Counted from the first letter of the stretch, positions 146 through 11,388 are shown. The stretch is DNA of 16,012 nt from a virus (IMGVR_UViG_2684623189_000001), one strand, 5' to 3'. Numbers and translations: made by a program. The notes: generated from the letters alone by a model not told the origin.

Positions 146-223
146 GATATGGGGTTTTGGTCGTTGTTAATGAGCAGAACAATCATGAACCGCCAACGAC
201 TGGATTCTCCCTTGGTTTATGTT

Positions 224-256
224 GGTGCGCATAATGTACGACTCGTTATGTTGAAA
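224..256 (+). other. dif-like XerC/XerD recombination site at the chromosome-prophage junction (attL-type)
   Basis: GGTGCGCATAA (224-234) matches the XerC-binding arm of the enterobacterial dif site as I recall it, followed by TGTA. After an 11-nt spacer (TGTACGACTCG) comes TTATGTTGAAA (246-256), which resembles the XerD arm TTATGTTAAAT. It sits exactly at the repeat boundary. Confidence 0.6.
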
Positions 257-257
257 A

Positions 258-289
258 GGCCGCTGCGAAAATCGTATCCCGCAGCGGCC
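258..289. terminator. GC-rich hairpin, probable bidirectional rho-independent terminator
   Basis: Perfect 10-bp inverted repeat GGCCGCTGCG / CGCAGCGGCC with a 12-nt loop. On the minus strand it is followed by TTTTCAACAT, downstream of the 159-aa gene; on the plus strand by TCTTT. Confidence 0.55.
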
Positions 290-320
290 TCTTTAGCATA
301 ACGTCATTGTGCGAACCAAT

Positions 321-800
321 TTATATAGAAATGAAAAACTCCTCTTCATTCCTTTTTTTATAATTATCATCCCATATAAGTTTTATTCGGTATTTAGTTT
401 TACTTCCAAAGCTTAGTCCCGCTAAAATTTCAATCCCATGTTGCGGGTGTAATACTTCATATGGAAATTTATCTTCTACATCATGCATGAAAAGATATTC
501 ATTGCCATCGTTATCAGGGAAATGAATTTCTATATTTTTAGCCTCAACTTTCCCTCTATTAAATATCTTGAGTCTATAGTTGTTTTTGGCTATTTTTACG
601 AGGCGGGCACCAAGCTCAGCCTTCATCTCATTAATTGCTGACTTTGTTTCTTTTTCTAGAAGCAACTTACGTAACCTGTCTTGCTCATCCTTTATAACCT
701 TTTGTTCTCTATCACTTTTTCTCGACTTCACTTCTGATGATATGATAGTGTAAATCGATACTACAAGCGCAGCTAAAGCGATGGCATCACTCGTTGTCAT
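321..800 (-). CDS. Hypothetical single-pass membrane protein (N-terminal TM helix, charged helical linker, C-terminal ~90-aa domain); cargo gene
   Basis: 159-aa ORF. N-terminal hydrophobic helix AIALAALVVSIYTIISS, then a K/E/R-rich stretch. Start ATG overlaps the stop of the upstream 91-aa ORF (TAATG); AGGA ribosome-binding site. Markedly AT-rich. No recognisable family. Confidence 0.65.
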   Translation of the reverse strand: MTTSDAIALAALVVSIYTIISSEVKSRKSDREQKVIKDEQDRLRKLLLEKETKSAINEMKAELGARLVKIAKNNYRLKIFNRGKVEAKNIEIHFPDNDGNEYLFMHDVEDKFPYEVLHPQHGIEILAGLSFGSKTKYRIKLIWDDNYKKRNEEEFFISI

Positions 801-1075
801 TATTTAATCCTTATATTTTTACTTCCTTTAAATGCCTTTTTGAGCATATCATTAAACTGTTTTTGAATATCTTTTGTTAACTCTTCTTTTATCTCATCCA
901 CATGGGCGTCAATACTCACCCCGTTTTCTTGGATTAAATCATCATTAGTGAATTCTTTCCCGCAGCCTACACATCTGACGACTTCAGACTCTTCCTCGTG
1001 TTCCATCTCTGTATTTCCGCACACAGGACATAGCAGGGTGATATTTCTATTGTATTTCTCAGGATTTAGTTTCAT
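800..1075 (-). CDS. Hypothetical zinc-ribbon protein (CxxC…CxxC); cargo gene
   Basis: 91-aa ORF with CPVCG …(16 aa)… CVGCG, a C4 zinc-ribbon signature, then an acidic/basic helical tail. AGGAA ribosome-binding site 7 nt upstream. Translationally coupled to the 159-aa ORF. AT-rich. Confidence 0.65.
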   Translation of the reverse strand: MKLNPEKYNRNITLLCPVCGNTEMEHEEESEVVRCVGCGKEFTNDDLIQENGVSIDAHVDEIKEELTKDIQKQFNDMLKKAFKGSKNIRIK

Positions 1076-1103
1076 ATATTTCCTCTCTTCTACGTTTTAT
1101 TGA

Positions 1104-1526
1104 TTACCAGTAATATGAATTTCTTCTGTGCCACCAATAAAGCAGCCCGTATCCGATGATAAGAATTCCGAAAAACATCAACGACATTCCCCAGCCAGTT
1201 CCATACCACGAAACCATATCATCGAAAACCAATCCACCCGTTTCACGTACTCCGGCAGCTTCCTTAAGGATTGGTTTGAATACCGGAATCAGAAGGGCAA
1301 TCGCCAGTGGAGCACCCCAGCGAACAAGACCTGTTTCCATTTTGATCCCGAAAAAGATCCCCGCCCCGACAACAAGCAGCCAGACTATCAGGCCAGGCGC
1401 AGTTTCCAGTGCTGTTTGCCATTCAACATCGAAAGTTTTCATTAGCCAGGCAACAACTGCCAGGCAGAAAGCAAATACGCCGACGACAACCAGTTCAACG
1501 CCGCTTGTTTCGTTGTTTCTACTCAT
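1104..1526 (-). CDS. Hypothetical small integral membrane protein, about 4 TM helices
   Basis: 140-aa ORF with four hydrophobic segments (about aa 10-29, 45-61, 69-83, 113-133) and a W/Y/R-rich C-terminus. AAGGA ribosome-binding site. The opposite-strand ORFs here are low-complexity and implausible. Confidence 0.65.
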   Translation of the reverse strand: MSRNNETSGVELVVVGVFAFCLAVVAWLMKTFDVEWQTALETAPGLIVWLLVVGAGIFFGIKMETGLVRWGAPLAIALLIPVFKPILKEAAGVRETGGLVFDDMVSWYGTGWGMSLMFFGILIIGYGLLYWWHRRNSYYW

Positions 1527-1570
1527 CCTTTTGATCCTTTTTCACTGTTCAAAATTCGCACAATAAAGAA

Positions 1571-1595
1571 CGTGCAGTGTTGGTAATACTGCACG
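1571..1595. terminator. Hairpin between the repressor gene and the cargo genes; putative terminator or attenuator
   Basis: CGTGCAGT / ACTGCACG, 8-bp perfect stem with a 9-nt loop. T-rich on both sides (TTTGTCTCATT on plus, TTCTTTATTG on minus). A second small hairpin GTCTCA-ttcc-TGAGAC lies at 1599-1614. Confidence 0.45.
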
Positions 1596-1625
1596 TTTGT
1601 CTCATTCCTGAGACTGTTAATCCTT

Positions 1626-2072
1626 TTACTCTTCTCCAGACACCGCTTTTTTCATAAACATTTTAGTACTGTAAGTGTATGAACTTAAGGCAGAAACCTG
1701 CCTTGCGAGTGCCAGAATATCTTGTTTTTCCAGTGTCCTGATGTTCCACACGATGAAATTATGTGCGTTAGTGGTTTCTTCATCAGTATATCCATCCGCA
1801 GAAGTGATTAGCTTCCGCTCGGTAGCTTCTTCTTTAACATCAAGAGCATAGCCATAAGCTAAGGTGTTTAAGTCTGCACCCGTAATTTTAGCTATCTGAA
1901 TGATGTCACTGAATTTAGGTTCAGTTTTGCCGGACGCTATCCTGACCAGCGTACTCACGCTAATGCCAGTCTTCTCGGCCAGTTCTTCATAAGTCGAGTG
2001 TTCCAGAATTACCTTTTTGATACGTTCTGCTCTCTGTTTGTCCGCCATAACTTCATGCTCATTGTTGCCCAT
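1626..2072 (-). CDS. XRE/Cro-C1-type helix-turn-helix transcriptional repressor (inovirus lysogeny repressor, RstR-like position)
   Basis: 148 aa. HTH signature YEELAEKTGISVSTLVRIASGKTEP. Divergently transcribed from the Rep gene, the arrangement seen in lysogenic inoviruses. Confidence 0.75.
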   Translation of the reverse strand: MGNNEHEVMADKQRAERIKKVILEHSTYEELAEKTGISVSTLVRIASGKTEPKFSDIIQIAKITGADLNTLAYGYALDVKEEATERKLITSADGYTDEETTNAHNFIVWNIRTLEKQDILALARQVSALSSYTYSTKMFMKKAVSGEE

Positions 2073-2243
2073 CTACTTGGCTCCATCTTAACAGTGGTTT
2101 TTCAATAGTTAGATTTGATGCTCATTTCTGACAATTTAAACATTGCAAATGTATTGACTGTCAGAACTGAGCATATTACATTGTGACCATTCAATCTGCT
2201 CACAAATGACTATTGACACATATTTTGATGGGTGTGACTACTT
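2073..2243. promoter_or_regulatory. Divergent promoter/operator region between repressor and Rep
   Basis: 171-bp AT-rich intergenic region. -35-like hexamers TTGACT (2154-2159) and TTGACA (2213-2218). Inverted repeats TTCTGACA (2126-2133) / TGTCAGAA (2159-2166) and ACATT-GCA-AATGT; recurring TGAC motifs. Confidence 0.5.
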
Positions 2244-3296
2244 ATGATCGACTGGTTTACCGGAATCCTGCCTTGCACACACCGACCGTTACCGGCTGGT
2301 AGTGTCGTCAGCGTCGATGCTGACGGTGCAGTGGAGTGGGAAACAGTAAAACGGTTGACCGTTCGCGGTTCGCATGAGTCCACAATGAAAGTAAGGTCTG
2401 TTGGATCTGATGGTGAAGGTCGGGCAACACATCTCTACATTGACGGTAATCCATCAAAGTTTTTGCAAGGTCACTCTGTTATCGGTTCCGACGATTTGCA
2501 AGGGTTGGTGTTAACAGCTTACGCCAGAATATTGGCATTACTGCATATTCCTCATGATCTACCATCCTATCGGCAGGTCATGGAAGGGCAATTTAAGATC
2601 TCGCGCATCGATATCAATTACATGTATTCATTGTCAACATTAGAAAATGTCCGCGCATGGTTATATGCCGCAGAATTTAAAGCTAAAACTCGCCACGGTC
2701 GCGCCTGTGGTAAAGGTGGCACTGTTTACTTAGGGAAAAACTCCCGTCGTTGGAGCCTGAAATTTTATTCAAAATATGATGAGCATACATCTGGCAAAAA
2801 AGGGCACCAGATGGCAGACGAATTCGTTAAAGCTGGTTTACTGGACTGGTCAAAAGATAAATTACGCATTGAATTAACATTAAGAACAACTGAATTAATT
2901 GATTTGAATCTTACGCTTGGTAATAGCTGGAATATTGAGACGCCCAATAAATTATTCTCTGACTATGTAGGGAGAATAGAAATGAATCAAAATACTATAT
3001 TAACTGATGAAAAAATAATTAATCTCCCAAGAAAAATACAGTCTACATATTTATTGTGGAAGCAGGGCGCGAACATGAAAGAGATGTTACCGAAACCTAC
3101 ATTCTACCGACACCGTAAAGAATTACTTTCTTTCGGAATAGATATTAACTTTTATTGTGAGTCACCGGATTCTAATAACGTTGTTCCGTTGGTTCGTACT
3201 CTTGAAGCCAAACCAGCCAAAATTCCATCATGGGTTTATGAGAAAGGTTTAATTTTCGATTATAACCGTATTTCACATGCCAGTAACTGGCATTAA
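2244..3296 (+). CDS. Rolling-circle replication initiation protein (Rep_trans / pII-like)
   Basis: 350 aa. Motif GTVYLGKNSRRWSLKFYSKYDE fits the Rep_trans-type pattern with catalytic Tyr. First gene of the plus-strand module, as in inoviruses. Confidence 0.75.
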   Translation: MIDWFTGILPCTHRPLPAGSVVSVDADGAVEWETVKRLTVRGSHESTMKVRSVGSDGEGRATHLYIDGNPSKFLQGHSVIGSDDLQGLVLTAYARILALLHIPHDLPSYRQVMEGQFKISRIDINYMYSLSTLENVRAWLYAAEFKAKTRHGRACGKGGTVYLGKNSRRWSLKFYSKYDEHTSGKKGHQMADEFVKAGLLDWSKDKLRIELTLRTTELIDLNLTLGNSWNIETPNKLFSDYVGRIEMNQNTILTDEKIINLPRKIQSTYLLWKQGANMKEMLPKPTFYRHRKELLSFGIDINFYCESPDSNNVVPLVRTLEAKPAKIPSWVYEKGLIFDYNRISHASNWH

Positions 3297-3307
3297 AGGA
3301 GAGTGAT

Positions 3308-3625
3308 ATGTCTAATTATGGTCTTTTTGTAAAAGGTAAAATGCTTGGTGCTCGCCAGCGTAATAAGGTCAATGGTCAGGGATACTATAATGAAATTGGT
3401 GTTGGCTTAGAGATTCCTGATGGTTTTGGCGGCACTAAGCAAGACCAGATTATTATTCGTGTATCTCAGGCTCTTGTTAATGCCGGTGTAATGAATCAGG
3501 CAAATAATTTTATCGGTAAGTTAGTCCAGATACCTGTATATGTTCGCGTCTGGTCAATGGAGGGGAGGGAAGGAGTAACTTATAACATTTCATCAGATGG
3601 CGGCATTACTGAAATAAAAGGCTGA
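3308..3625 (+). CDS. Putative ssDNA-binding protein (pV/RstB-like by position)
   Basis: 105 aa. Strong AAGGAG ribosome-binding site. Immediately downstream of Rep; Gly-rich, beta-type composition. Function is inferred from synteny only. Confidence 0.5.
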   Translation: MSNYGLFVKGKMLGARQRNKVNGQGYYNEIGVGLEIPDGFGGTKQDQIIIRVSQALVNAGVMNQANNFIGKLVQIPVYVRVWSMEGREGVTYNISSDGGITEIKG

Positions 3626-3627
3626 TT

Positions 3628-3879
3628 ATGGATGCATCAGGTTTCGATATTCAGTTTGATAATCATATTCCTGAAAATGGTTACCGTATTGAAGGTTATT
3701 TATGTAATGCGAACAATGCAAAAGAATGTCAGGCAATAATGGTACGTTCTGAACCATTTCATCAAATTGATTATTCTGCAATGGGAAATTACTGGACATT
3801 AGGTTTTGGCTCTGTCCTGCTGCTCTGGCTTTTTTCTGTAGGTGTGGGACAGGTAATAAAGATGGTTCGTACTGCTTGA
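3628..3879 (+). CDS. Hypothetical small protein with C-terminal TM helix (possible minor virion or assembly protein)
   Basis: 83 aa. C-terminal hydrophobic helix WTLGFGSVLLLWLFSVGVG followed by a basic tail. Tightly packed between the ssb-like and coat genes. Confidence 0.4.
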   Translation: MDASGFDIQFDNHIPENGYRIEGYLCNANNAKECQAIMVRSEPFHQIDYSAMGNYWTLGFGSVLLLWLFSVGVGQVIKMVRTA

Positions 3880-3913
3880 ATGCGAACCTTTAAAATGTAA
3901 TGGAGATAGAGTT

Positions 3914-4147
3914 ATGTTTAAAAAAATCGTTAGTTTTCTGGCTGTACCTGCATTAATGGCTGTTTCTGGCGCGACTTTCGCTGCAGAAGGAGCGGCATCA
4001 AGTGGTGTTGATTTATCGCCGCTGACGAACAGCATTGATTTCAGTACAGTTCTGGTTGCGATTATGGCCGTTGCTGCTTCACTGGTAACACTTTATGCCG
4101 GTGTCGCTGGCGTTCGCTGGGTATTGCGTACCGTTAAATCCGCATAA
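3914..4147 (+). CDS. Major coat protein (pVIII-like)
   Basis: 77 aa. Signal peptide MFKKIVSFLAVPALMAVSGATFA with AxA cleavage motif. Mature part has an acidic N-terminus, a hydrophobic core and a basic C-terminus (RWVLRTVKSA). GGAG ribosome-binding site. Confidence 0.85.
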   Translation: MFKKIVSFLAVPALMAVSGATFAAEGAASSGVDLSPLTNSIDFSTVLVAIMAVAASLVTLYAGVAGVRWVLRTVKSA

Positions 4148-4211
4148 ATTCATTATTCATGGGCGATGCAATATCGCCCGTTTTACTTGAGGTTATTATG
4201 GAGATTGAATT

Positions 4212-5924
4212 ATGGAAATTGGGTTCCCTTTTATGGGGGATCGTCTCAGCTTATGTCGTTATTCTTGGGCTAAGAGGCTGACGGTTTATTCCTTTATTTT
4301 TTCCTTTCTCTGGGTTTCCTTTCCCCGATATTCATATTCATTTGTACCAGCAATTGCAGCAGTGGCTGCGCGGGCTGTTATTCCTAAAGTCGTTGGCCGG
4401 GTGCTTGTTCGTCGCTTTGCTGCCAATGATGCGATTTATACGGCATCACAGCTTACAGCAACCCGTGTTTTTGTTGGCCGCGCTGCGGCTAATGCTGCCG
4501 AATACTTGCCTGCTGCCTCATCATACAAAATGAGCGGTGTTGCAACGTGGGCGGGTATTGCTGCTGCTGTATCATCTTTTGTTCCGTCTTCTTTGAGTTC
4601 ATCTGACGGCTCGGTAATGGTAATGACTAACGGTAAAAAGATTTCCGATAATTTATATGAAGTAACGTACAGTGGTCAAAGTGGTGAAAGTAAGACGATA
4701 ACCGTTAATTTTGAACCACAGGAATTAAGTCCGGTAATCCTTCATGTTAGTCGTAATAATGTGGATGCGGGTTCTCCAGTTGTAGGTGTTGAAACAGGAT
4801 ATTCCACGCCAGATAATGCACTTTATTATTATCAGGATTCGAAAGAGCTAATTTATTACTATGGTGATAATCCAACTGAAATTGCCAGAAATTATCTTAA
4901 TGACTATAACTCGCGTACTTATACTGAAACACTAACGAATTTTGAACGCACTGTGACGAATAAAGTTGTCAACAGTAATGGAGATGTATCCTTTACTGAA
5001 CAGAATTATAAGTTTACTTATCCTTCCTCATTTTATGAAATACCTGAGATTACACACTTGTATAGCAACCCGGCCGCATCTTCATTTCCCGCAGGTATTC
5101 CCATGTATGAAAATGTAGCAGGGCTTCCCATGTATTACAGCGTTGCTTATTTAACAGCAGGAAAGCAATATCAGTATCACAACACGCCTTGTAAAACGAC
5201 TAATCAGTCAAATGGTGGATATTCGACGATTTGTGCCGTTCCTGAAAAAGAGGATTACACCGCAAAAGATATTGATGAAAAGAGTGAGCTTACTATCTGG
5301 ACCAATACCAAATATAAAGCCATGACGGAAGTACTGGAGGCTGGAAATATTGAGTCCATGATTGATTATCTGGAGTATCTTGATAGTGTTAGTGTATCGC
5401 CAGCACTTCTTGCCGACATGATTAACGAGCTGTGGTCTGAAGCTGCCGTTAATGCCGATTATAACGGCTTACCGTTTAAAGAGGTTTCACCGGCTGAAGT
5501 AACTTCTGCGATGTCGGAACTTAGGCTATCTCCAACGTTATTAGATATGCTTTCACCTGTATCTGACAGTGCAGGGGCTGACGTCAATATTGATATTACC
5601 ATTAATAACAACTCAGGATCTGACACTGGAAATAATGGCAATATAGATTTGGGAGAAGATCCCGGTGTAAAAGAGCCTGAGCTTGAAGAAACGCCAACGG
5701 CAAGAGATATTTTAACGCCAATTATTAACTTGTTGCCTTTTACAAACGAATTTAACATCGGCTCTCGTTCAGCATCCTGCCCCGTTGTTGAATTCAGCGT
5801 GTTTAATCACCAGTACAGAATTGACTCCCATTGTCCGTTAATTGAGCAGAACAGAAGCGCCGTAGAAACCATATTTCTGATTATATGGGGATTTGTTGCG
5901 CTCCGTATTATTCTGAGTGCCTAA
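4212..5924 (+). CDS. Minor coat / adsorption protein (pIII-like); exact start uncertain
   Basis: 570 aa. Follows the major coat gene. Gly/Ser/Asn-rich linker (NNNSGSDTGNNGNIDLGEDPG) and C-terminal membrane anchor (IFLIIWGFVALRIILSA). N-terminus is atypical; alternative start at Met8 (4233). Confidence 0.65.
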   Translation: MEIGFPFMGDRLSLCRYSWAKRLTVYSFIFSFLWVSFPRYSYSFVPAIAAVAARAVIPKVVGRVLVRRFAANDAIYTASQLTATRVFVGRAAANAAEYLPAASSYKMSGVATWAGIAAAVSSFVPSSLSSSDGSVMVMTNGKKISDNLYEVTYSGQSGESKTITVNFEPQELSPVILHVSRNNVDAGSPVVGVETGYSTPDNALYYYQDSKELIYYYGDNPTEIARNYLNDYNSRTYTETLTNFERTVTNKVVNSNGDVSFTEQNYKFTYPSSFYEIPEITHLYSNPAASSFPAGIPMYENVAGLPMYYSVAYLTAGKQYQYHNTPCKTTNQSNGGYSTICAVPEKEDYTAKDIDEKSELTIWTNTKYKAMTEVLEAGNIESMIDYLEYLDSVSVSPALLADMINELWSEAAVNADYNGLPFKEVSPAEVTSAMSELRLSPTLLDMLSPVSDSAGADVNIDITINNNSGSDTGNNGNIDLGEDPGVKEPELEETPTARDILTPIINLLPFTNEFNIGSRSASCPVVEFSVFNHQYRIDSHCPLIEQNRSAVETIFLIIWGFVALRIILSA

Positions 5925-5936
5925 AGGAGTGCAACT

Positions 5937-6224
5937 ATGTTTGGGATTCTGATTAGTGCATTAAATACTTTGTTAGGTTTTGTATTCCGGTCATTGATTA
6001 TTAAATTCGTCGTATTCTTTGCGCTGTATTTTGTAGTCCAGGGCTTCGTTGAAATCCTTGTTGAGTTACTGCCAGATTCAAGCAATCTCTCATCGCTGTT
6101 TGCCAATTTATCAGACGGATTCTGGTACTTCATTAACCTGAGTAAATTACCACAGGGGATTAGTATGATTATCTCCGCAATGGCTACTCGTTTTATTATT
6201 CGACGTATTCCTGTTATAGGGTGA
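5937..6224 (+). CDS. Minor coat protein (pVI-like)
   Basis: 95 aa, strongly hydrophobic. AAGGAG ribosome-binding site. Lies between the pIII-like and Zot/pI genes, as pVI does in inoviruses. Confidence 0.6.
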   Translation: MFGILISALNTLLGFVFRSLIIKFVVFFALYFVVQGFVEILVELLPDSSNLSSLFANLSDGFWYFINLSKLPQGISMIISAMATRFIIRRIPVIG

Positions 6225-6227
6225 GTT

Positions 6228-7253
6228 ATGGCTATTTCTGCATATATTGGCATACCCGGCTCAGGAAAAAGTTATGAAGCCGTTTGCAATGTCATTATTC
6301 CGGCATTTACCAGCGGCCGGAGAGTTGTGACGAACATTTATGGTTTACAAAAAGATAAAATCACCGAACGTTATCCTGATGCAACGGGAGAAATTATTGT
6401 TGTGGATAATGATGATGTGCTTAAAGCAGATTTCTTTCCTTTTAAAGGTGGGGAAGGGAGCTTTTGCCAGTTTGGTGATTTAATTGTTATTGATGAAGCA
6501 TGGCGAATCTTCGGTAGCGATAAGGATATGACGGCTGAGAAGAAATCATTTATTGCTGAACATCGTCATTTTACGCACCCTGAAACGGGTATTAGCTGTG
6601 ATTTGGTTATTGTAAATCAGTCACTTTCTAATATTGCTCGCTTTCTGAAAGACAAAATAGAAACAACTTACCGGATGCGCAAGCTGAAAGCGTTGGGCCT
6701 GAATAATCATTACTGCATTGACGTATATTCAGGCCACAAAATCTATAAAAGCAACCTCGTCACCAGTTATCGCAATAAATATAACCCTGATATTTTTGAA
6801 CTTTACAAAAGTTATGAAGGAAATAACGGTAATGAAAAGCAGACAGATAAACGCCAGAGCATCTGGAATTCTGGCAAAGTCAGGTTCTTTCTTGTGCTTT
6901 TTCCATTGATGTTTATCGGGTCAGGCTGGCTGATTTACTCATTTTTCAGCACGTTTGGCCGAAGCGATCCCTCGCCAGATTTGACTACAACAGATGTACG
7001 TGATGCGGCCATGTTTCGTTCTTCCGCTGCTACTCCAGCACCAGATACTCCCTCAGAACCAGCTGAACCGCCACTTTCAACCGAGTGGCGTATATCAGGG
7101 AGAATGACCAGTGAAGGCAGGGCGTTTGTGATTCTTGTTAATGGTGCCGGTGTTTTGCGTGCCGTTCCTGCATCCAGTTTTAATTACAAAGGGATGTTGA
7201 TGAGCGGAATTATTGATGGTGAGCGTGTGACGCTTTATACGGGGAAAAAATAA
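6228..7253 (+). CDS. Zot / pI-family morphogenesis (assembly) ATPase
   Basis: 341 aa. Walker A GIPGSGKSY, Walker B LIVIDEAW, single TM segment (VRFFLVLFPLMFIGSGWLIYSFF) followed by a periplasmic C-terminal region. Confidence 0.85.
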   Translation: MAISAYIGIPGSGKSYEAVCNVIIPAFTSGRRVVTNIYGLQKDKITERYPDATGEIIVVDNDDVLKADFFPFKGGEGSFCQFGDLIVIDEAWRIFGSDKDMTAEKKSFIAEHRHFTHPETGISCDLVIVNQSLSNIARFLKDKIETTYRMRKLKALGLNNHYCIDVYSGHKIYKSNLVTSYRNKYNPDIFELYKSYEGNNGNEKQTDKRQSIWNSGKVRFFLVLFPLMFIGSGWLIYSFFSTFGRSDPSPDLTTTDVRDAAMFRSSAATPAPDTPSEPAEPPLSTEWRISGRMTSEGRAFVILVNGAGVLRAVPASSFNYKGMLMSGIIDGERVTLYTGKK

Positions 7254-8497
7254 TGAAAAAGATTTTACTCGCATTAACGCTACTATTTTCTTCATGTGCT
7301 TTCGCAGGGTCAGAGCTTGAATTAAATAAAGTCAAGCTACCGGAGGCTATTTCTCTTATTTACAGTGAGGTGCTTAAAGTCCCGTATATGCTAGATCCAC
7401 AGCTTGTTAATGATGAACGAATGATTACATTCAGGTTAACACCTGATATTGATGAACGGGAATTTGTAACCCGTTATCTTGGCAATATGAACATTCGAAT
7501 ATGGACGAAAAAGGGTGTTGATTTTATCGCGCCCTATACGCCGAAAGAGCCGGTTAAGCCACGTTATACATGGACTTATACGCCTCAGTACCGTTCTGTT
7601 GCCTACCTGTCTGATATTCTTGGCGGCTACGTTTCAGGCTCCTTCAATAACAGTGGAGCCGTGATTTCTGACGATTCGCTAAAAGGTTCATCAGGGGCAA
7701 GCAACTACATCAATCGAACCGGTGATATTCTGGTTTATTATGGTACGAAAGAGGATATCGCCATCCTGAAAACACTGGTCACTTCGCTGGATACGATGAG
7801 TGATGAAGTGGTTGTTTCTGGTTATGTTTTTGAGGTTCAGACCTCGCAGTCTGACGGCTCCGGCATTCTTTTAGCGGCTAAAATTCTGTCTGATAAATTC
7901 AATATTTCAGTTGGTGCTGCCGGACTGGATAATTTTATCAATATTCGAACCGGCTCCATTGATGCCATTTTCAATCTGCTGAAAACCGACAGTCGTTTTA
8001 CTGTTGTCAGTGCGCCACGACTGCGGGTAAAAAATAATGCCTCAGCGTCTTTTTCAGTCGGCTCTGATGTGCCAGTACTGGGCAGTGTTACGGTGAATAA
8101 CAATACGACAACGCAATCCGTTGAATATCGTTCCAGCGGTGTTTTGTTTAACGTGACGCCATCAATCAAAAGTCGGACAATGGATCTCAAGATTCAGCAG
8201 CAGCTTTCCAACTTTGTGACCACTGAAACCGGCGTCAATAACTCGCCAACCCTTATCAAGCGTGATGTAACAACCGAAGTCAGCCTTGCAGATGGTGATA
8301 TTATTTTACTTGGTGGCCTTGCTGAACAGAAAGACAGTAAGGCCAGTTCCGGCTGGAGCTTCTTCGGTTCCCGTACCAGTGAAAGCAACAAGACTGATAT
8401 TATGGTGATGCTTCAGGTCAGAAAGGTTGACCGGAGCAGGGCGACGCCCCGCAGCGCCGCGAGGAGCGGTGAACTGTTCCGGGACAACCTGAACTGA
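7253..8497 (+). CDS. pIV-type secretin (phage export channel)
   Basis: 414 aa. Signal peptide MKKILLALTLLFSSCAFA. C-terminal secretin-like region (VVSAPRLRV…VPVLGSV…DGDIILLGGLAE). Start overlaps the Zot/pI stop (TAATG). Confidence 0.8.
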   Translation: MKKILLALTLLFSSCAFAGSELELNKVKLPEAISLIYSEVLKVPYMLDPQLVNDERMITFRLTPDIDEREFVTRYLGNMNIRIWTKKGVDFIAPYTPKEPVKPRYTWTYTPQYRSVAYLSDILGGYVSGSFNNSGAVISDDSLKGSSGASNYINRTGDILVYYGTKEDIAILKTLVTSLDTMSDEVVVSGYVFEVQTSQSDGSGILLAAKILSDKFNISVGAAGLDNFINIRTGSIDAIFNLLKTDSRFTVVSAPRLRVKNNASASFSVGSDVPVLGSVTVNNNTTTQSVEYRSSGVLFNVTPSIKSRTMDLKIQQQLSNFVTTETGVNNSPTLIKRDVTTEVSLADGDIILLGGLAEQKDSKASSGWSFFGSRTSESNKTDIMVMLQVRKVDRSRATPRSAARSGELFRDNLN

Positions 8498-8585
8498 TTG
8501 TATGGATTTTTATTATGGCGTTAACTTTTATGGGGTATGAACAGTACGACATCTTCTAGGTATTCAGTTACTTAGAGGATTTATT

Positions 8586-8834
8586 ATGTCTGTAAAAAAT
8601 AAGGCGCGTGACCGACTTCCCGGTGGCCGCCTTAAGTCTTATCGTCGTGTAGGTTCACATTTTGCCAGTTGTGCCAGATGGTTTGATAAATCGCCGTCCT
8701 GGTATCGCAATATGATGATGACCAGGCCTGAGCGTCGTGAAGTCAGAAGGCTTCTCAATCAGGTAATGCGTGGTCATGATGCTGACGGCATTGCTTTTCC
8801 GGTCAGTCATCGTCCGTTTGTTTATTGGTGGTGA
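8586..8834 (+). CDS. Hypothetical small basic protein
   Basis: 82 aa, Arg/Trp-rich. GAGG ribosome-binding site 8 nt upstream. In the accessory region between secretin and att site. No family recognised. Confidence 0.45.
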   Translation: MSVKNKARDRLPGGRLKSYRRVGSHFASCARWFDKSPSWYRNMMMTRPERREVRRLLNQVMRGHDADGIAFPVSHRPFVYWW

Positions 8835-9018
8835 ATTTCGTACGCACGAAATTTCACGCATAAACACCAGACAAAAAATCGTTAACTGTCTGTTTTGAAA
8901 GATAACGCCGGTCAGTGACAAAACTTGTTTTGTTGCTGTCCGGGGTTGGCCAAGCCGTACAGTTTCCATTTTCAGCGTTATGGCTGATTCGGCGCGGCAG
9001 CATTCATCGGGGCTTATC

Positions 9019-9228
9019 ATGGAAAAATTCATGACACATCAGGAGCTGAAAGTGATGCTTCTTAAAGATCCAGCATTCCGGGCTGCTTATGAAGCTGAGA
9101 GCCAGAACCCGCAATCCGGTTACCAGATTATCCGGCATCATGGTGATGGCACTGAAGAAGTGGTGTTTGATTCTCGTGTATCAGGTACAGATTTACCAAC
9201 TAACTGGATGAACAGGCCTGATTGGTGA
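9019..9228 (+). CDS. Hypothetical small protein (ORF track places the start at 8980; 9019 preferred)
   Basis: About 69 aa from the ATG at 9019, which has a GGGG ribosome-binding site. N-terminal motif ELKVMLLKDPAFRAAYEA. Last gene before the att site. Confidence 0.4.
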   Translation: MEKFMTHQELKVMLLKDPAFRAAYEAESQNPQSGYQIIRHHGDGTEEVVFDSRVSGTDLPTNWMNRPDW

Positions 9229-9368
9229 GGTCAGGCCGTTCACTTACTGCTGACAGACATTTGATTCTGATTCGTTTGGAGAAACGGATGATTTTGAATC
9301 ACTGTCGATAGTAGCCAGTTGACGGCCAGTGTCAACGATTCCCGCCAGATTCTGCCATCCTTACCATT

Positions 9369-9401
9369 GGTGCGCATAATGTACGACTCGTTATGTTGAA
9401 A
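9369..9401 (+). other. dif-like XerC/XerD site at the copy1/copy2 junction (attP-type)
   Basis: Identical to 224-256 but flanked on the left by prophage sequence rather than chromosomal flank. Confidence 0.6.
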
Positions 9402-10671: not shown

Positions 10672-10715
10672 CCTTTTGATCCTTTTTCACTGTTCAAAAT
10701 TCGCACAATAAAGAA

Positions 10716-10740
10716 CGTGCAGTGTTGGTAATACTGCACG
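10716..10740. terminator. Hairpin between repressor and cargo genes (copy 2)
   Basis: Identical to 1571-1595. Confidence 0.45.
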
Positions 10741-10770
10741 TTTGTCTCATTCCTGAGACTGTTAATCCTT

Positions 10771-11217
10771 TTACTCTTCTCCAGACACCGCTTTTTTCAT
10801 AAACATTTTAGTACTGTAAGTGTATGAACTTAAGGCAGAAACCTGCCTTGCGAGTGCCAGAATATCTTGTTTTTCCAGTGTCCTGATGTTCCACACGATG
10901 AAATTATGTGCGTTAGTGGTTTCTTCATCAGTATATCCATCCGCAGAAGTGATTAGCTTCCGCTCGGTAGCTTCTTCTTTAACATCAAGAGCATAGCCAT
11001 AAGCTAAGGTGTTTAAGTCTGCACCCGTAATTTTAGCTATCTGAATGATGTCACTGAATTTAGGTTCAGTTTTGCCGGACGCTATCCTGACCAGCGTACT
11101 CACGCTAATGCCAGTCTTCTCGGCCAGTTCTTCATAAGTCGAGTGTTCCAGAATTACCTTTTTGATACGTTCTGCTCTCTGTTTGTCCGCCATAACTTCA
11201 TGCTCATTGTTGCCCAT
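10771..11217 (-). CDS. XRE-type HTH repressor (copy 2)
   Basis: Identical translation to 1626-2072. Confidence 0.75.
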   Translation of the reverse strand: MGNNEHEVMADKQRAERIKKVILEHSTYEELAEKTGISVSTLVRIASGKTEPKFSDIIQIAKITGADLNTLAYGYALDVKEEATERKLITSADGYTDEETTNAHNFIVWNIRTLEKQDILALARQVSALSSYTYSTKMFMKKAVSGEE

Positions 11218-11388
11218 CTACTTGGCTCCATCTTAACAGTGGTTTTTCAATAGTTAGATTTGATGCTCATTTCTGACAATTTAAACATTGCAAATGTATT
11301 GACTGTCAGAACTGAGCATATTACATTGTGACCATTCAATCTGCTCACAAATGACTATTGACACATATTTTGATGGGTGTGACTACTT
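11218..11388. promoter_or_regulatory. Divergent promoter/operator region (copy 2)
   Basis: Identical to 2073-2243. Confidence 0.5.

Follow-up and report, generated by a model that had tools for sequence, protein, structure and literature searches.

The repressor/Rep intergenic region

The DNA analyzed here is a 16,012-nt stretch of viral origin (IMGVR_UViG_2684623189_000001; the whole stretch is referred to as the window), in which a 171-bp intergenic control region (positions 2073–2243) separates the gene of an XRE-type repressor from that of the replication initiator Rep in a tandem filamentous prophage. The original prediction read this region as an operator array between divergent promoters that controls Rep. 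The divergent arrangement was borne out, with open reading frames (ORFs) at 1626–2072 on the minus strand and 2244–3296 on the plus strand, both confirmed by Pfam. The description of the gap as AT-rich applies only in a moderate sense, its GC content being ~0.36–0.38 compared with mostly 0.37–0.53 in flanking intervals (range 0.28–0.54). An identical copy of the control region lies at 11218–11388, in the second tandem unit.

The repressor gene (1626–2072, minus strand) encodes a protein of 148 amino acids (aa) with an N-terminal XRE helix-turn-helix (HTH) domain and a C-terminal two-helix region; its equivalent in phage YpfPhi is YPO2273, and the protein is 100% identical to a gene product in Yersinia pestis NCTC5923. 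Residues 27–68 matched Pfam HTH_3 (E 1.6e-09, 38.1 bits with a cut-off of 23), and the protein matched phrog_3557, 'transcriptional regulator', at E 4e-74, while a PDB sequence search returned just weak generic HTH matches (best E 0.004). In the AlphaFold model the HTH helices (residues 12–73) form a five-helix N-terminal domain with a predicted local distance difference test score (pLDDT) of 83–89, and the C-terminal helices (98–145) have a pLDDT of ~60, which is low confidence. The latter helices are conserved among homologues as AHNFIVWN...LDKxDIL and probably mediate oligomerization. Pfam gave no match to a Peptidase_S24 domain in the repressor, the last 50 residues being predicted as two helices, so that the protein is unlike the autocleavable repressors of the lambda CI and LexA kind.

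On the other side of the gap, Rep (gene II, a G2P-type initiator; 2244–3296, plus strand, 350 aa) matched Pfam Phage_CRI (E 1.2e-73) and G2P_X_C (E 3.6e-34) and shares 58% identity with the gene II product of phage I2-2. As the first gene of the rightward phage operon, it is the presumed regulated target.

Predicted operator sites

Three imperfect copies of an 18-bp pseudo-palindrome, designated OA, OA′ and OB, lie in the control region with their centers exactly 39 bp apart. Predicted operator OA (2118–2135, plus strand; ATGCTCA-TTTC-TGACAAT) is located at −71 to −54 relative to the predicted start of the Rep promoter P1 (see below) and overlaps one candidate repressor promoter; its half-sites are invariant across the nine-sequence alignment of class A (classes of sequence upstream of Rep are described below; the nine variants differ by up to ~18% in flanking genes). 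Predicted operator OA′ (2157–2174, minus strand; ATGCTCA-GTTC-TGACAGT) lies in the right arm of a large inverted repeat, over the −35 element and spacer of P1 (−32 to −15); its ATGCTCA half is perfect and the far half weak, and the site is lineage-specific, as it is degenerate in relative L048 (TGACCAT; L numbers denote related loci) and absent in distant relatives. Predicted operator OB (2196–2213, plus strand; CTGCTCA-CAAA-TGACTAT) spans +8 to +25 of the predicted Rep leader, and an equivalent ATGCTCA-N4-TG(A/G)C(T/C)AT is found on the Rep side in L048, L057, L058 and L059. A possible fourth site (2055–2072, plus strand; ATGCTCA-TTGT-TGCCCAT) lies over repressor codons 1–6; it is tentative and we do not claim it to be functional, as it could merely reflect conserved N-terminal residues of the repressor (..EH).

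This anatomy departs from that originally described, in which an 8-bp inverted pair flanked an inner dyad and TGAC-containing repeats served as half-sites. The pair is present (TTCTGACA at 2126–2133, TGTCAGAA at 2159–2166), but it sits within the larger repeat, which has 27-nt arms, and the TGAC/TTCTGACA repeats give way to ATGCTCA, inside the 18-bp unit, as the conserved half-site. Comparison of the sequences suggests that the functional unit is more likely to be the pseudo-palindrome ATGCTCA-N4-TGAnnAT than the 8-bp TTCTGACA repeat or the inner dyad, and its ideal form would be the 18-bp dyad ATGCTCA-N4-TGAGCAT.

The motif is concentrated in the control region. With up to one mismatch, ATGCTCA-N4-TGA occurs four times per phage copy, always within 2055–2209 (11200–11354 in the second copy) and never elsewhere in the unit; the eight matches in the window compare with 1.44 expected, and none of 200 shuffles reached eight. 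A consensus derived from the other phages recovered window positions 2056, 2119 and 2197 at up to two mismatches. Among the nine class A variants, 49 of 56 positions in the predicted operators, promoter and TTGACA hexamer are invariant, whereas the remainder of the gap has 54 of 103 (Fisher p = 4.6e-06); since the related sequences had been viewed before the site boundaries were picked, this test lacks full independence. The N4 spacers of the sites are invariant at 6 of 12 positions, i.e. at background level. Short repeats are common in AT-rich DNA, and several of the 7–10-nt repeats that we found are of the kind expected by chance; nevertheless, a neutral or chance origin of the repeats in an AT-rich promoter region is extremely improbable in view of the shuffle tests, of how the sites cluster and are conserved, and of their recurrence in phages of other genera.

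Operator motif and recognition helix

To compare sites across the family, relatives were gathered by repressor homology and the surrounding DNA was read. The repressor gene is divergent from a replication gene in every case read, and 11 related loci share the layout of the window. Repressors with the recognition helix GISVSTLVRI are found in L053 (55% identical repressor), L057 (Aeromonas), L058 (Photobacterium), L059 and L048, which come from unrelated samples, Aeromonas and Photobacterium genomes among these. These relatives carry ATGCTCA sites at the same two positions as the window, except that L053 lacks the second, Rep-side site. The first site lies ~45 bp upstream of the repressor start codon; at this OA position, L053 and L059 have perfect palindromes (ATGCTCA-TTTG-TGAGCAT and ATGCTCA-TTAG-TGAGCAT, respectively) and L057 has ATGCTCA-TTTG-TGAGCAC, one base off perfect. 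The L057 sites adjoin an unrelated Rep_trans-type initiator.

Where the helix differs, so does the motif. The repressors of L049 and L051 are 72–75% identical overall and have the helix GINVRTLVRIATA, and the corresponding palindromes are GGACA-N4-TGTCC and AGACA-N4-TGTCT. Arginine at the second serine position of the helix (L049, L051, L061 and Vibrio phage L062) goes with (G/A)GACA-N4-TGTC(C/T/A)-type palindromes, and L060 has TGCCACATGTGGCA in place of the ATGCTCA-type site. The half-sites of the helix classes differ chiefly at two central bases, CT versus GA. This co-variation across distant phages indicates that the motif follows the putative DNA-reading helix, as expected of an operator and its repressor.

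A 122-aa plasmid homologue with an identical helix is very widespread, with hundreds of E. coli and Salmonella contigs carrying it, and follows closely on a resolvase gene; two of its loci, L055 and L056, are ~41-kb contigs with TrbL and resolvase genes.

Exchange of the repressor cassette

A further line of evidence comes from 39 viral contigs found via Rep, whose upstream sequences we sorted into classes. At least four unrelated classes lie beside Rep genes that are 80–99% identical at the DNA level. In class B (L016, L019), Rep DNA is 97–99% identical, the match to the window begins at exactly 2244, leftward only 1523–1615 is retained, and the regulator is a paralogue with 40% identity. Class D (L034, L037) matches the window at 1104–1627 and again from 2245; its regulator (L031–L043) is an unrelated 60-aa protein, phrog_2503, with no Pfam family, which replaces the XRE repressor. 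In class C (L021/L049/L051) the repressor gene is 76% identical and 2052–2224 is unalignable. The class break points at 1616/1628 and 2244, beside near-identical Rep genes, indicate from the alignments that 1616–2243, comprising the repressor gene and the gap, is exchanged as one unit.

The class D gap contains four TGAACTCA direct repeats.

Predicted promoters and the conserved block next to OB

Promoter prediction, proposed at the outset as a check, yielded a Rep-sense promoter, TTGACT-17-TACATT, at 2154–2182 on the plus strand. This predicted promoter, P1, comprises a −35 element TTGACT (2154–2159), a 17-nt spacer and a −10 element TACATT (2177–2182), which would place the start at ~2189; it scores 9 of 12 matches to the consensus hexamers, and 10 of the 12 hexamer positions are invariant in class A. 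Of 12 relatives scanned, 11 have an equivalent promoter (9–10 of 12) between the two operators; those named are L048, L029, L030, L057, L058, L059, L060, L061, L049 and L051, with the promoter always in the corresponding place, and L053 yielded none. The relatives' promoter places OA at approximately −70 to −56 and OB at +8 to +20, and OA′ lies directly over the −35 element and spacer in the window lineage only.

Both −35-like hexamers of the original prediction are thus present, one as the −35 element of P1 and the other, TTGACA (2213–2218), without a −10 partner. We rejected the latter as a Rep −35 element, as neither the window nor any relative has a −10 element 16–18 nt downstream of it, and some relatives have TTGACA as close as 7–16 nt to the called start codon. 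A plus-strand TTAACA-16-TAGATT (2088–2115) was also rejected as a promoter, its −10 element not being conserved in class A variants. For the repressor, two minus-strand promoter candidates lie within 2085–2134. The first, TTGTCA (2129–2134) followed by 18 nt and AACTAT (2105–2110), scores 8 of 12 and overlaps OA, with a −10 element that is not conserved in L029 or L030. The second is an extended −10-like TGTTAAGAT (2085–2093), conserved in sequence and directly upstream of the GGAG ribosome-binding site (2081–2084), which may be merely part of the translation-initiation region.

The TTGACA hexamer belongs to a conserved motif, CTATTGACA (2210–2218, plus strand), that abuts OB. In the form CTATTGACA(G/C/T)(G/A), corresponding to window positions 2210–2219, it adjoins the Rep-proximal operator without exception in the relatives retrieved by repressor homology (L048, L049, L051 and L057–L062), and it is kept beside operators of every specificity (TGCTCA, GACA and GCCAC types) and beside different Rep families, Rep_trans in L057 included. 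It keeps a fixed distance to OB but lies anywhere from 7 to 63 nt from the start codon, with no −10 element at 16–18 nt downstream. One conceivable explanation, which we regard as speculative and unlikely, is that CTATTGACA is a functional −35-like leader element at which OB-bound repressor holds sigma-70 RNA polymerase, in the manner of a trap or roadblock, or activates a cryptic promoter. If this were true, the switch mechanism of the family would differ from simple promoter occlusion.

The large inverted repeat and candidate origins

The larger repeat that encloses the 8-bp pair consists of arms at 2118–2144 and 2148–2174, each 27 nt long, 81% complementary and separated by 3 nt, and is the longest inverted repeat in the 9145-bp prophage unit. 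Folded as single-stranded DNA, 2118–2174 yields −14.8 kcal/mol (z = −4.4, with 1 of 200 shuffles equally good); because the fold energy beats 199 of 200 shuffles, the inverted repeat is more than chance. At its center, the inner dyad ACATT-GCA-AATGT is present at 2140–2152 as first described, but it is not conserved, being broken in L048 and L029 in the class A alignment, and 7 of its 13 columns are invariant, which equals background. The dyad is probably incidental.

The fold raises the question of whether the 57-bp repeat works as a hairpin on single-stranded phage DNA, either as a promoter-mimicking minus-strand origin as in Ff phages, as a packaging signal or as an arm of a Xer attP site, rather than as a double-stranded protein-binding array. 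The plus (virion) strand does fold as a long hairpin, a −35-like TTGAC lies within the stem, and the hairpin potential is kept in L009, L026, L029 and L030 (z −3.1 to −6.6). In L030 both arms have changed to give a perfect stem; we discarded this compensatory-looking change as evidence, as it amounts to one event, in a spacer position that varies freely, and the hairpin is lost in L048. In L048 (z = −1.5, 13 of 200 shuffles as good) the potential is gone though OA, P1 and OB are kept, distant relatives with the same helix have just separate 18-bp sites and no large inverted repeat, and the inner stem is not conserved. Moreover, the element swaps with the repressor and not with replication or morphogenesis genes, and other inverted repeats (8841–8862, 8904–8947 and 244–303) occupy the classical position after gene IV and that by the dif-like site. 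A hairpin function in place of operators is therefore improbable.

Another reading would make the repeat the (+) origin, i.e. the binding and nicking site of the G2P-type initiator upstream of gene II. Rolling-circle origins are often inverted repeats, Ff phages have their (+) origin directly ahead of gene II, in the intergenic region, and the plus strand at 2094–2112 (GTGGTTTTTCAATAGTTAG) may bear a loose likeness to the Ff nick region. The exchange data speak strongly against this, as Rep genes 97–99% identical at the DNA level stand beside wholly different gap sequences in classes B and C, and the gap, being replaced wholesale next to near-identical Rep genes, is not cognate to Rep. The same ATGCTCA sites also occur beside the unrelated Rep_trans-type initiator in L057, and a better origin candidate, retained in all immunity classes, exists elsewhere, so that we consider an origin within the repeat very unlikely.

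That better candidate is a hairpin element common to phage I2-2, at 1568–1609 on the plus strand (and 10713–10754), just beyond the repressor stop codon and at the left edge of the immunity cassette. It is ~88% identical to the non-coding segment 2667–2708 of I2-2 (L001), though the Rep proteins are just 58% identical, and it is kept at 86–94% in classes B and D, which are otherwise unlike the window between 1616/1628 and 2243. The element folds at −16.2 kcal/mol (z = −5.8) and belongs to the segment that travels with Rep across classes (1523–1615). From these comparisons, 1568–1609 is probably the Rep-cognate (+) origin. An Rfam scan of 1400–2400 (E ≤ 1) gave just a meaningless microRNA match far below threshold.

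Prophage context

Host flank makes up the first ~221 bp of the window. The tandem inovirus prophage comes next and repeats itself exactly at a 9145-bp offset from ~222; the landmarks are 1–245 for the flank, 222–9366 for the 9145-bp unit and 9359–9390 for the junction. The second unit is identical to the first as far as the window extends, and a dif-like sequence, GGTGCGCATAATGTACGACTCGTTATGTTGAA, is present at both prophage junctions. The unit codes for the G2P/Phage_CRI initiator, a G5P single-strand-binding protein, a Zot/pI-like assembly ATPase and a secretin, and on the opposite strand for the 148-aa HTH_3 protein (1626–2072) followed by three small ORFs.

The segment 1600–3300 has 100% identity to chromosomes of E. 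coli with two or three copies in tandem, strain FDAARGOS_1303 having three tandem prophage copies; it was matched in 136 of 5426 complete E. coli genomes, nearly full-length in 95. Y. pestis has two copies of the 148-aa repressor, 8742 bp apart, each 100% identical to the window protein. Repressor identity in Y. pestis together with dif-flanked tandem copies in E. coli indicates, at the level of sequence, that the prophage is a member of the CUS-1/YpfPhi group of dif-integrating filamentous phages. A megablast search with the 9145-bp unit found zero matches in 50,697 phage records, so the family is absent from this collection at the nucleotide level.

The Y. pestis copies (L003/L004) are 99.7% identical to the window from 1546 rightwards and show no match across 322–1545, a segment with three ORFs on the minus strand, which code for 159, 91 (putative zinc-binding) and 140 aa; this mismatch agrees with the published attL-adjacent difference between YpfPhi and CUS-1. 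Inverted repeats are found at 244–303, adjoining the dif-like site (24-nt arms, 88% complementary), and, as strong repeats, at 8841–8862 and 8904–8947 in the non-coding stretch 3′ of the secretin gene; these are candidates for an attP arm or terminator and for a packaging signal or minus-strand origin. In Erwinia psidii (L005, 2800–3300), a decayed piece of the repressor gene (52% identical, residues 45–142) lies directly beside a dif site with no intact ORF, a remnant of a lost or degraded prophage of the same family. This locus, the sole moderately diverged repressor match in the genome collection, has no intact gap and could not be used for comparison.

Discussion

We consider it likely that this integrative inovirus of the YpfPhi/CUS-1 type has its immunity control region at 2073–2243, with sites for the phage's own repressor placed around the Rep promoter. 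The core of the original prediction, an operator array controlling Rep, is well supported by comparison because the repressor gene and gap swap together and the motif tracks the recognition helix, and its anatomy needed correction. The sequence features, their non-random clustering and conservation, the cassette-like exchange and the co-variation of motif and helix are observed, and from them we infer the binding, stoichiometry, transcription starts, cooperativity, autoregulation and effect on phage production in the following scheme. Dimers of the 148-aa XRE repressor would bind the 18-bp pseudo-palindromes ATGCTCA-N4-TGAnnAT, with OA placed ahead of the Rep promoter, where it would cover or adjoin the promoter of the repressor gene itself. 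Occupancy of OA′ would occlude the −35 element and spacer of P1, and that of OB would block polymerase just downstream of the P1 start. Binding, probably cooperative via the C-terminal helical domain, would keep RNA polymerase off P1 or stall it there, shutting down gene II (Rep) and the rightward replication and assembly operon, such that the tandem prophage would stay quiet and incoming phages of the same immunity type would be blocked. OA would probably feed back on repressor synthesis and may also stabilize the complex.

The literature on this phage group offers some context. According to the YpfPhi review, the corresponding gap is 'believed to be involved in transcription initiation', and resident YpfPhi is reported to give partial protection only (PMC4266046). 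The UPphi paper describes genes II and V as common to YpfPhi and does not discuss repressors, and we found no operator mapping or immunity types for the YpfPhi/CUS-1 group in the literature.

Control might also be exerted chiefly by host nucleoid or global regulators (RovA/SlyA, H-NS) acting on an AT-rich gap, with no repressor-specific role for the motifs. The gap is moderately AT-rich, and in Y. pestis RovA is reported to bind the putative promoter region of YPO2274, the Rep homologue, and to affect phage transcription (PMC4266046). The direction of this effect conflicts between secondary sources, as phage transcripts rise in a rovA mutant according to PMC4266046, and RovA stimulates CUS-2 transcription according to PMC3180457. 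Host control as the chief input appears quite unlikely, since it would leave the helix-specific motifs and the cassette exchange unexplained; the two controls are compatible, and host factors are more likely to be an added layer.

Several points nevertheless weigh against regulation of Rep by its divergent repressor in the form proposed here. Given the reported RovA binding, the repressor is not the sole input to control, and the regulatory role of the YpfPhi repressor YPO2273 'awaits experimental demonstration' (PMC4266046). All three sites in the window are imperfect, with 4–5 of 7 positions matching in the far half; OA′ has three mismatches to the full consensus and is missed at up to two; and the invariance test shares the dependence on site boundaries noted above. 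Because OA′ is degenerate in L048 and absent in distant relatives, direct occlusion of P1 by this site is not family-wide. On the repressor side, no consistent promoter candidate emerged across the relatives scanned, and for the 122-aa plasmid homologue (L055/L056) no TGCTCA-N4-TGAGCA-like site was found within 3 kb. Finally, the presence of CTATTGACA next to OB is not explained by an operator or simple occlusion model.

The proposed control region most closely recalls that of CTXphi, likewise an integrative, dif/XerCD-dependent inovirus with tandem prophages and a small HTH repressor gene divergent from the replication gene. The CTXphi gap, ig-2, is similarly compact, with 138 bp and three RstR sites (PMC4762005) compared with 171 bp and three predicted sites here. 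Repression by an RstR allele is confined to the ig-2 promoter that belongs to it (PMC11509585), and in both systems the repressor and gap vary jointly as allele-specific cassettes beside conserved replication genes (PMC4762005, PMC11509585). The systems differ in that Rep is of the G2P/Phage_CRI type here, the predicted operators resemble ordinary 18-bp dyads, and one cassette class (D) swaps the XRE repressor for an unrelated 60-aa protein. In addition, CTXphi PrstA is co-repressed by LexA, whereas a search of 2073–2243 for the LexA box CTGT-N8-ACAG (up to one mismatch) gave no match. A tblastn search against the 50,697 phage records (E ≤ 0.01), a collection in which the presence of CTXphi is unverified, matched nothing beyond Vibrio cyclitrophicus inoviruses and a small number of generic Cro/repressor entries, with no match to CTXphi.

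The arrangement also resembles the lambdoid OR region (cI/PRM-PR/cro) in its divergent promoters, short gap and three dyad operators (predicted here) for an HTH repressor, in the recognition helix setting specificity and in the swapping of immunity regions as modules. However, nothing resembling Cro is apparent as a second regulator beside Rep, an S24 autocleavage domain is missing from the repressor, and the predicted operators are 39 bp apart instead of adjacent, one of them downstream of the start site. Pf4r of Pf4 and FpsR of SW1 are likewise phage repressors, which bind ahead of the replication or early operon and confer superinfection immunity (PMC8402870, PMC4762005); they differ in protein family and layout, the SW1 gap being 621 bp with long overlapping 5′ untranslated regions, and Pf4 also uses an excisionase/integrase module, a gene for which is absent here.

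With phage I2-2, of the Ff type, the prophage has in common the related gene II and the hairpin element at 1568–1609, and I2-2 carries a perfect 18-bp palindrome, ATACGTGTATACACGTAT, at 3053–3070, 20 nt upstream of its gene II. In contrast, I2-2 has no repressor gene and its gap upstream of gene II shows no similarity to 2073–2243; in the window, an inserted repressor gene separates the origin-like element from the gene II promoter. Small unannotated minus-strand ORFs (44–46 aa) are located at 2720–2918 of I2-2, where the prophage has its repressor gene.

As the switch architecture is familiar from CTXphi and lambdoid phages, the conceptual gain is modest. What the analysis supplies is a concrete operator consensus, ATGCTCA-N4-TGAGCAT, a promoter assignment and the bounds of the cassette, 1616–2243. 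The natural specificity series, in which serine goes with TGCTCA and arginine with GGACA, may be of use in the design of orthogonal repressor/operator pairs, and changing the helix from GISVSTLVRIASG to GINVRTLVRIATA is predicted to move the preference from TGCTCA to GGACA operators. YpfPhi/CUS-1-type filamentous prophages occupy the dif site of pandemic Y. pestis and of many extra-intestinal pathogenic E. coli, and the existence of at least four heteroimmune cassette types would predict which co-resident or incoming phages can coexist.

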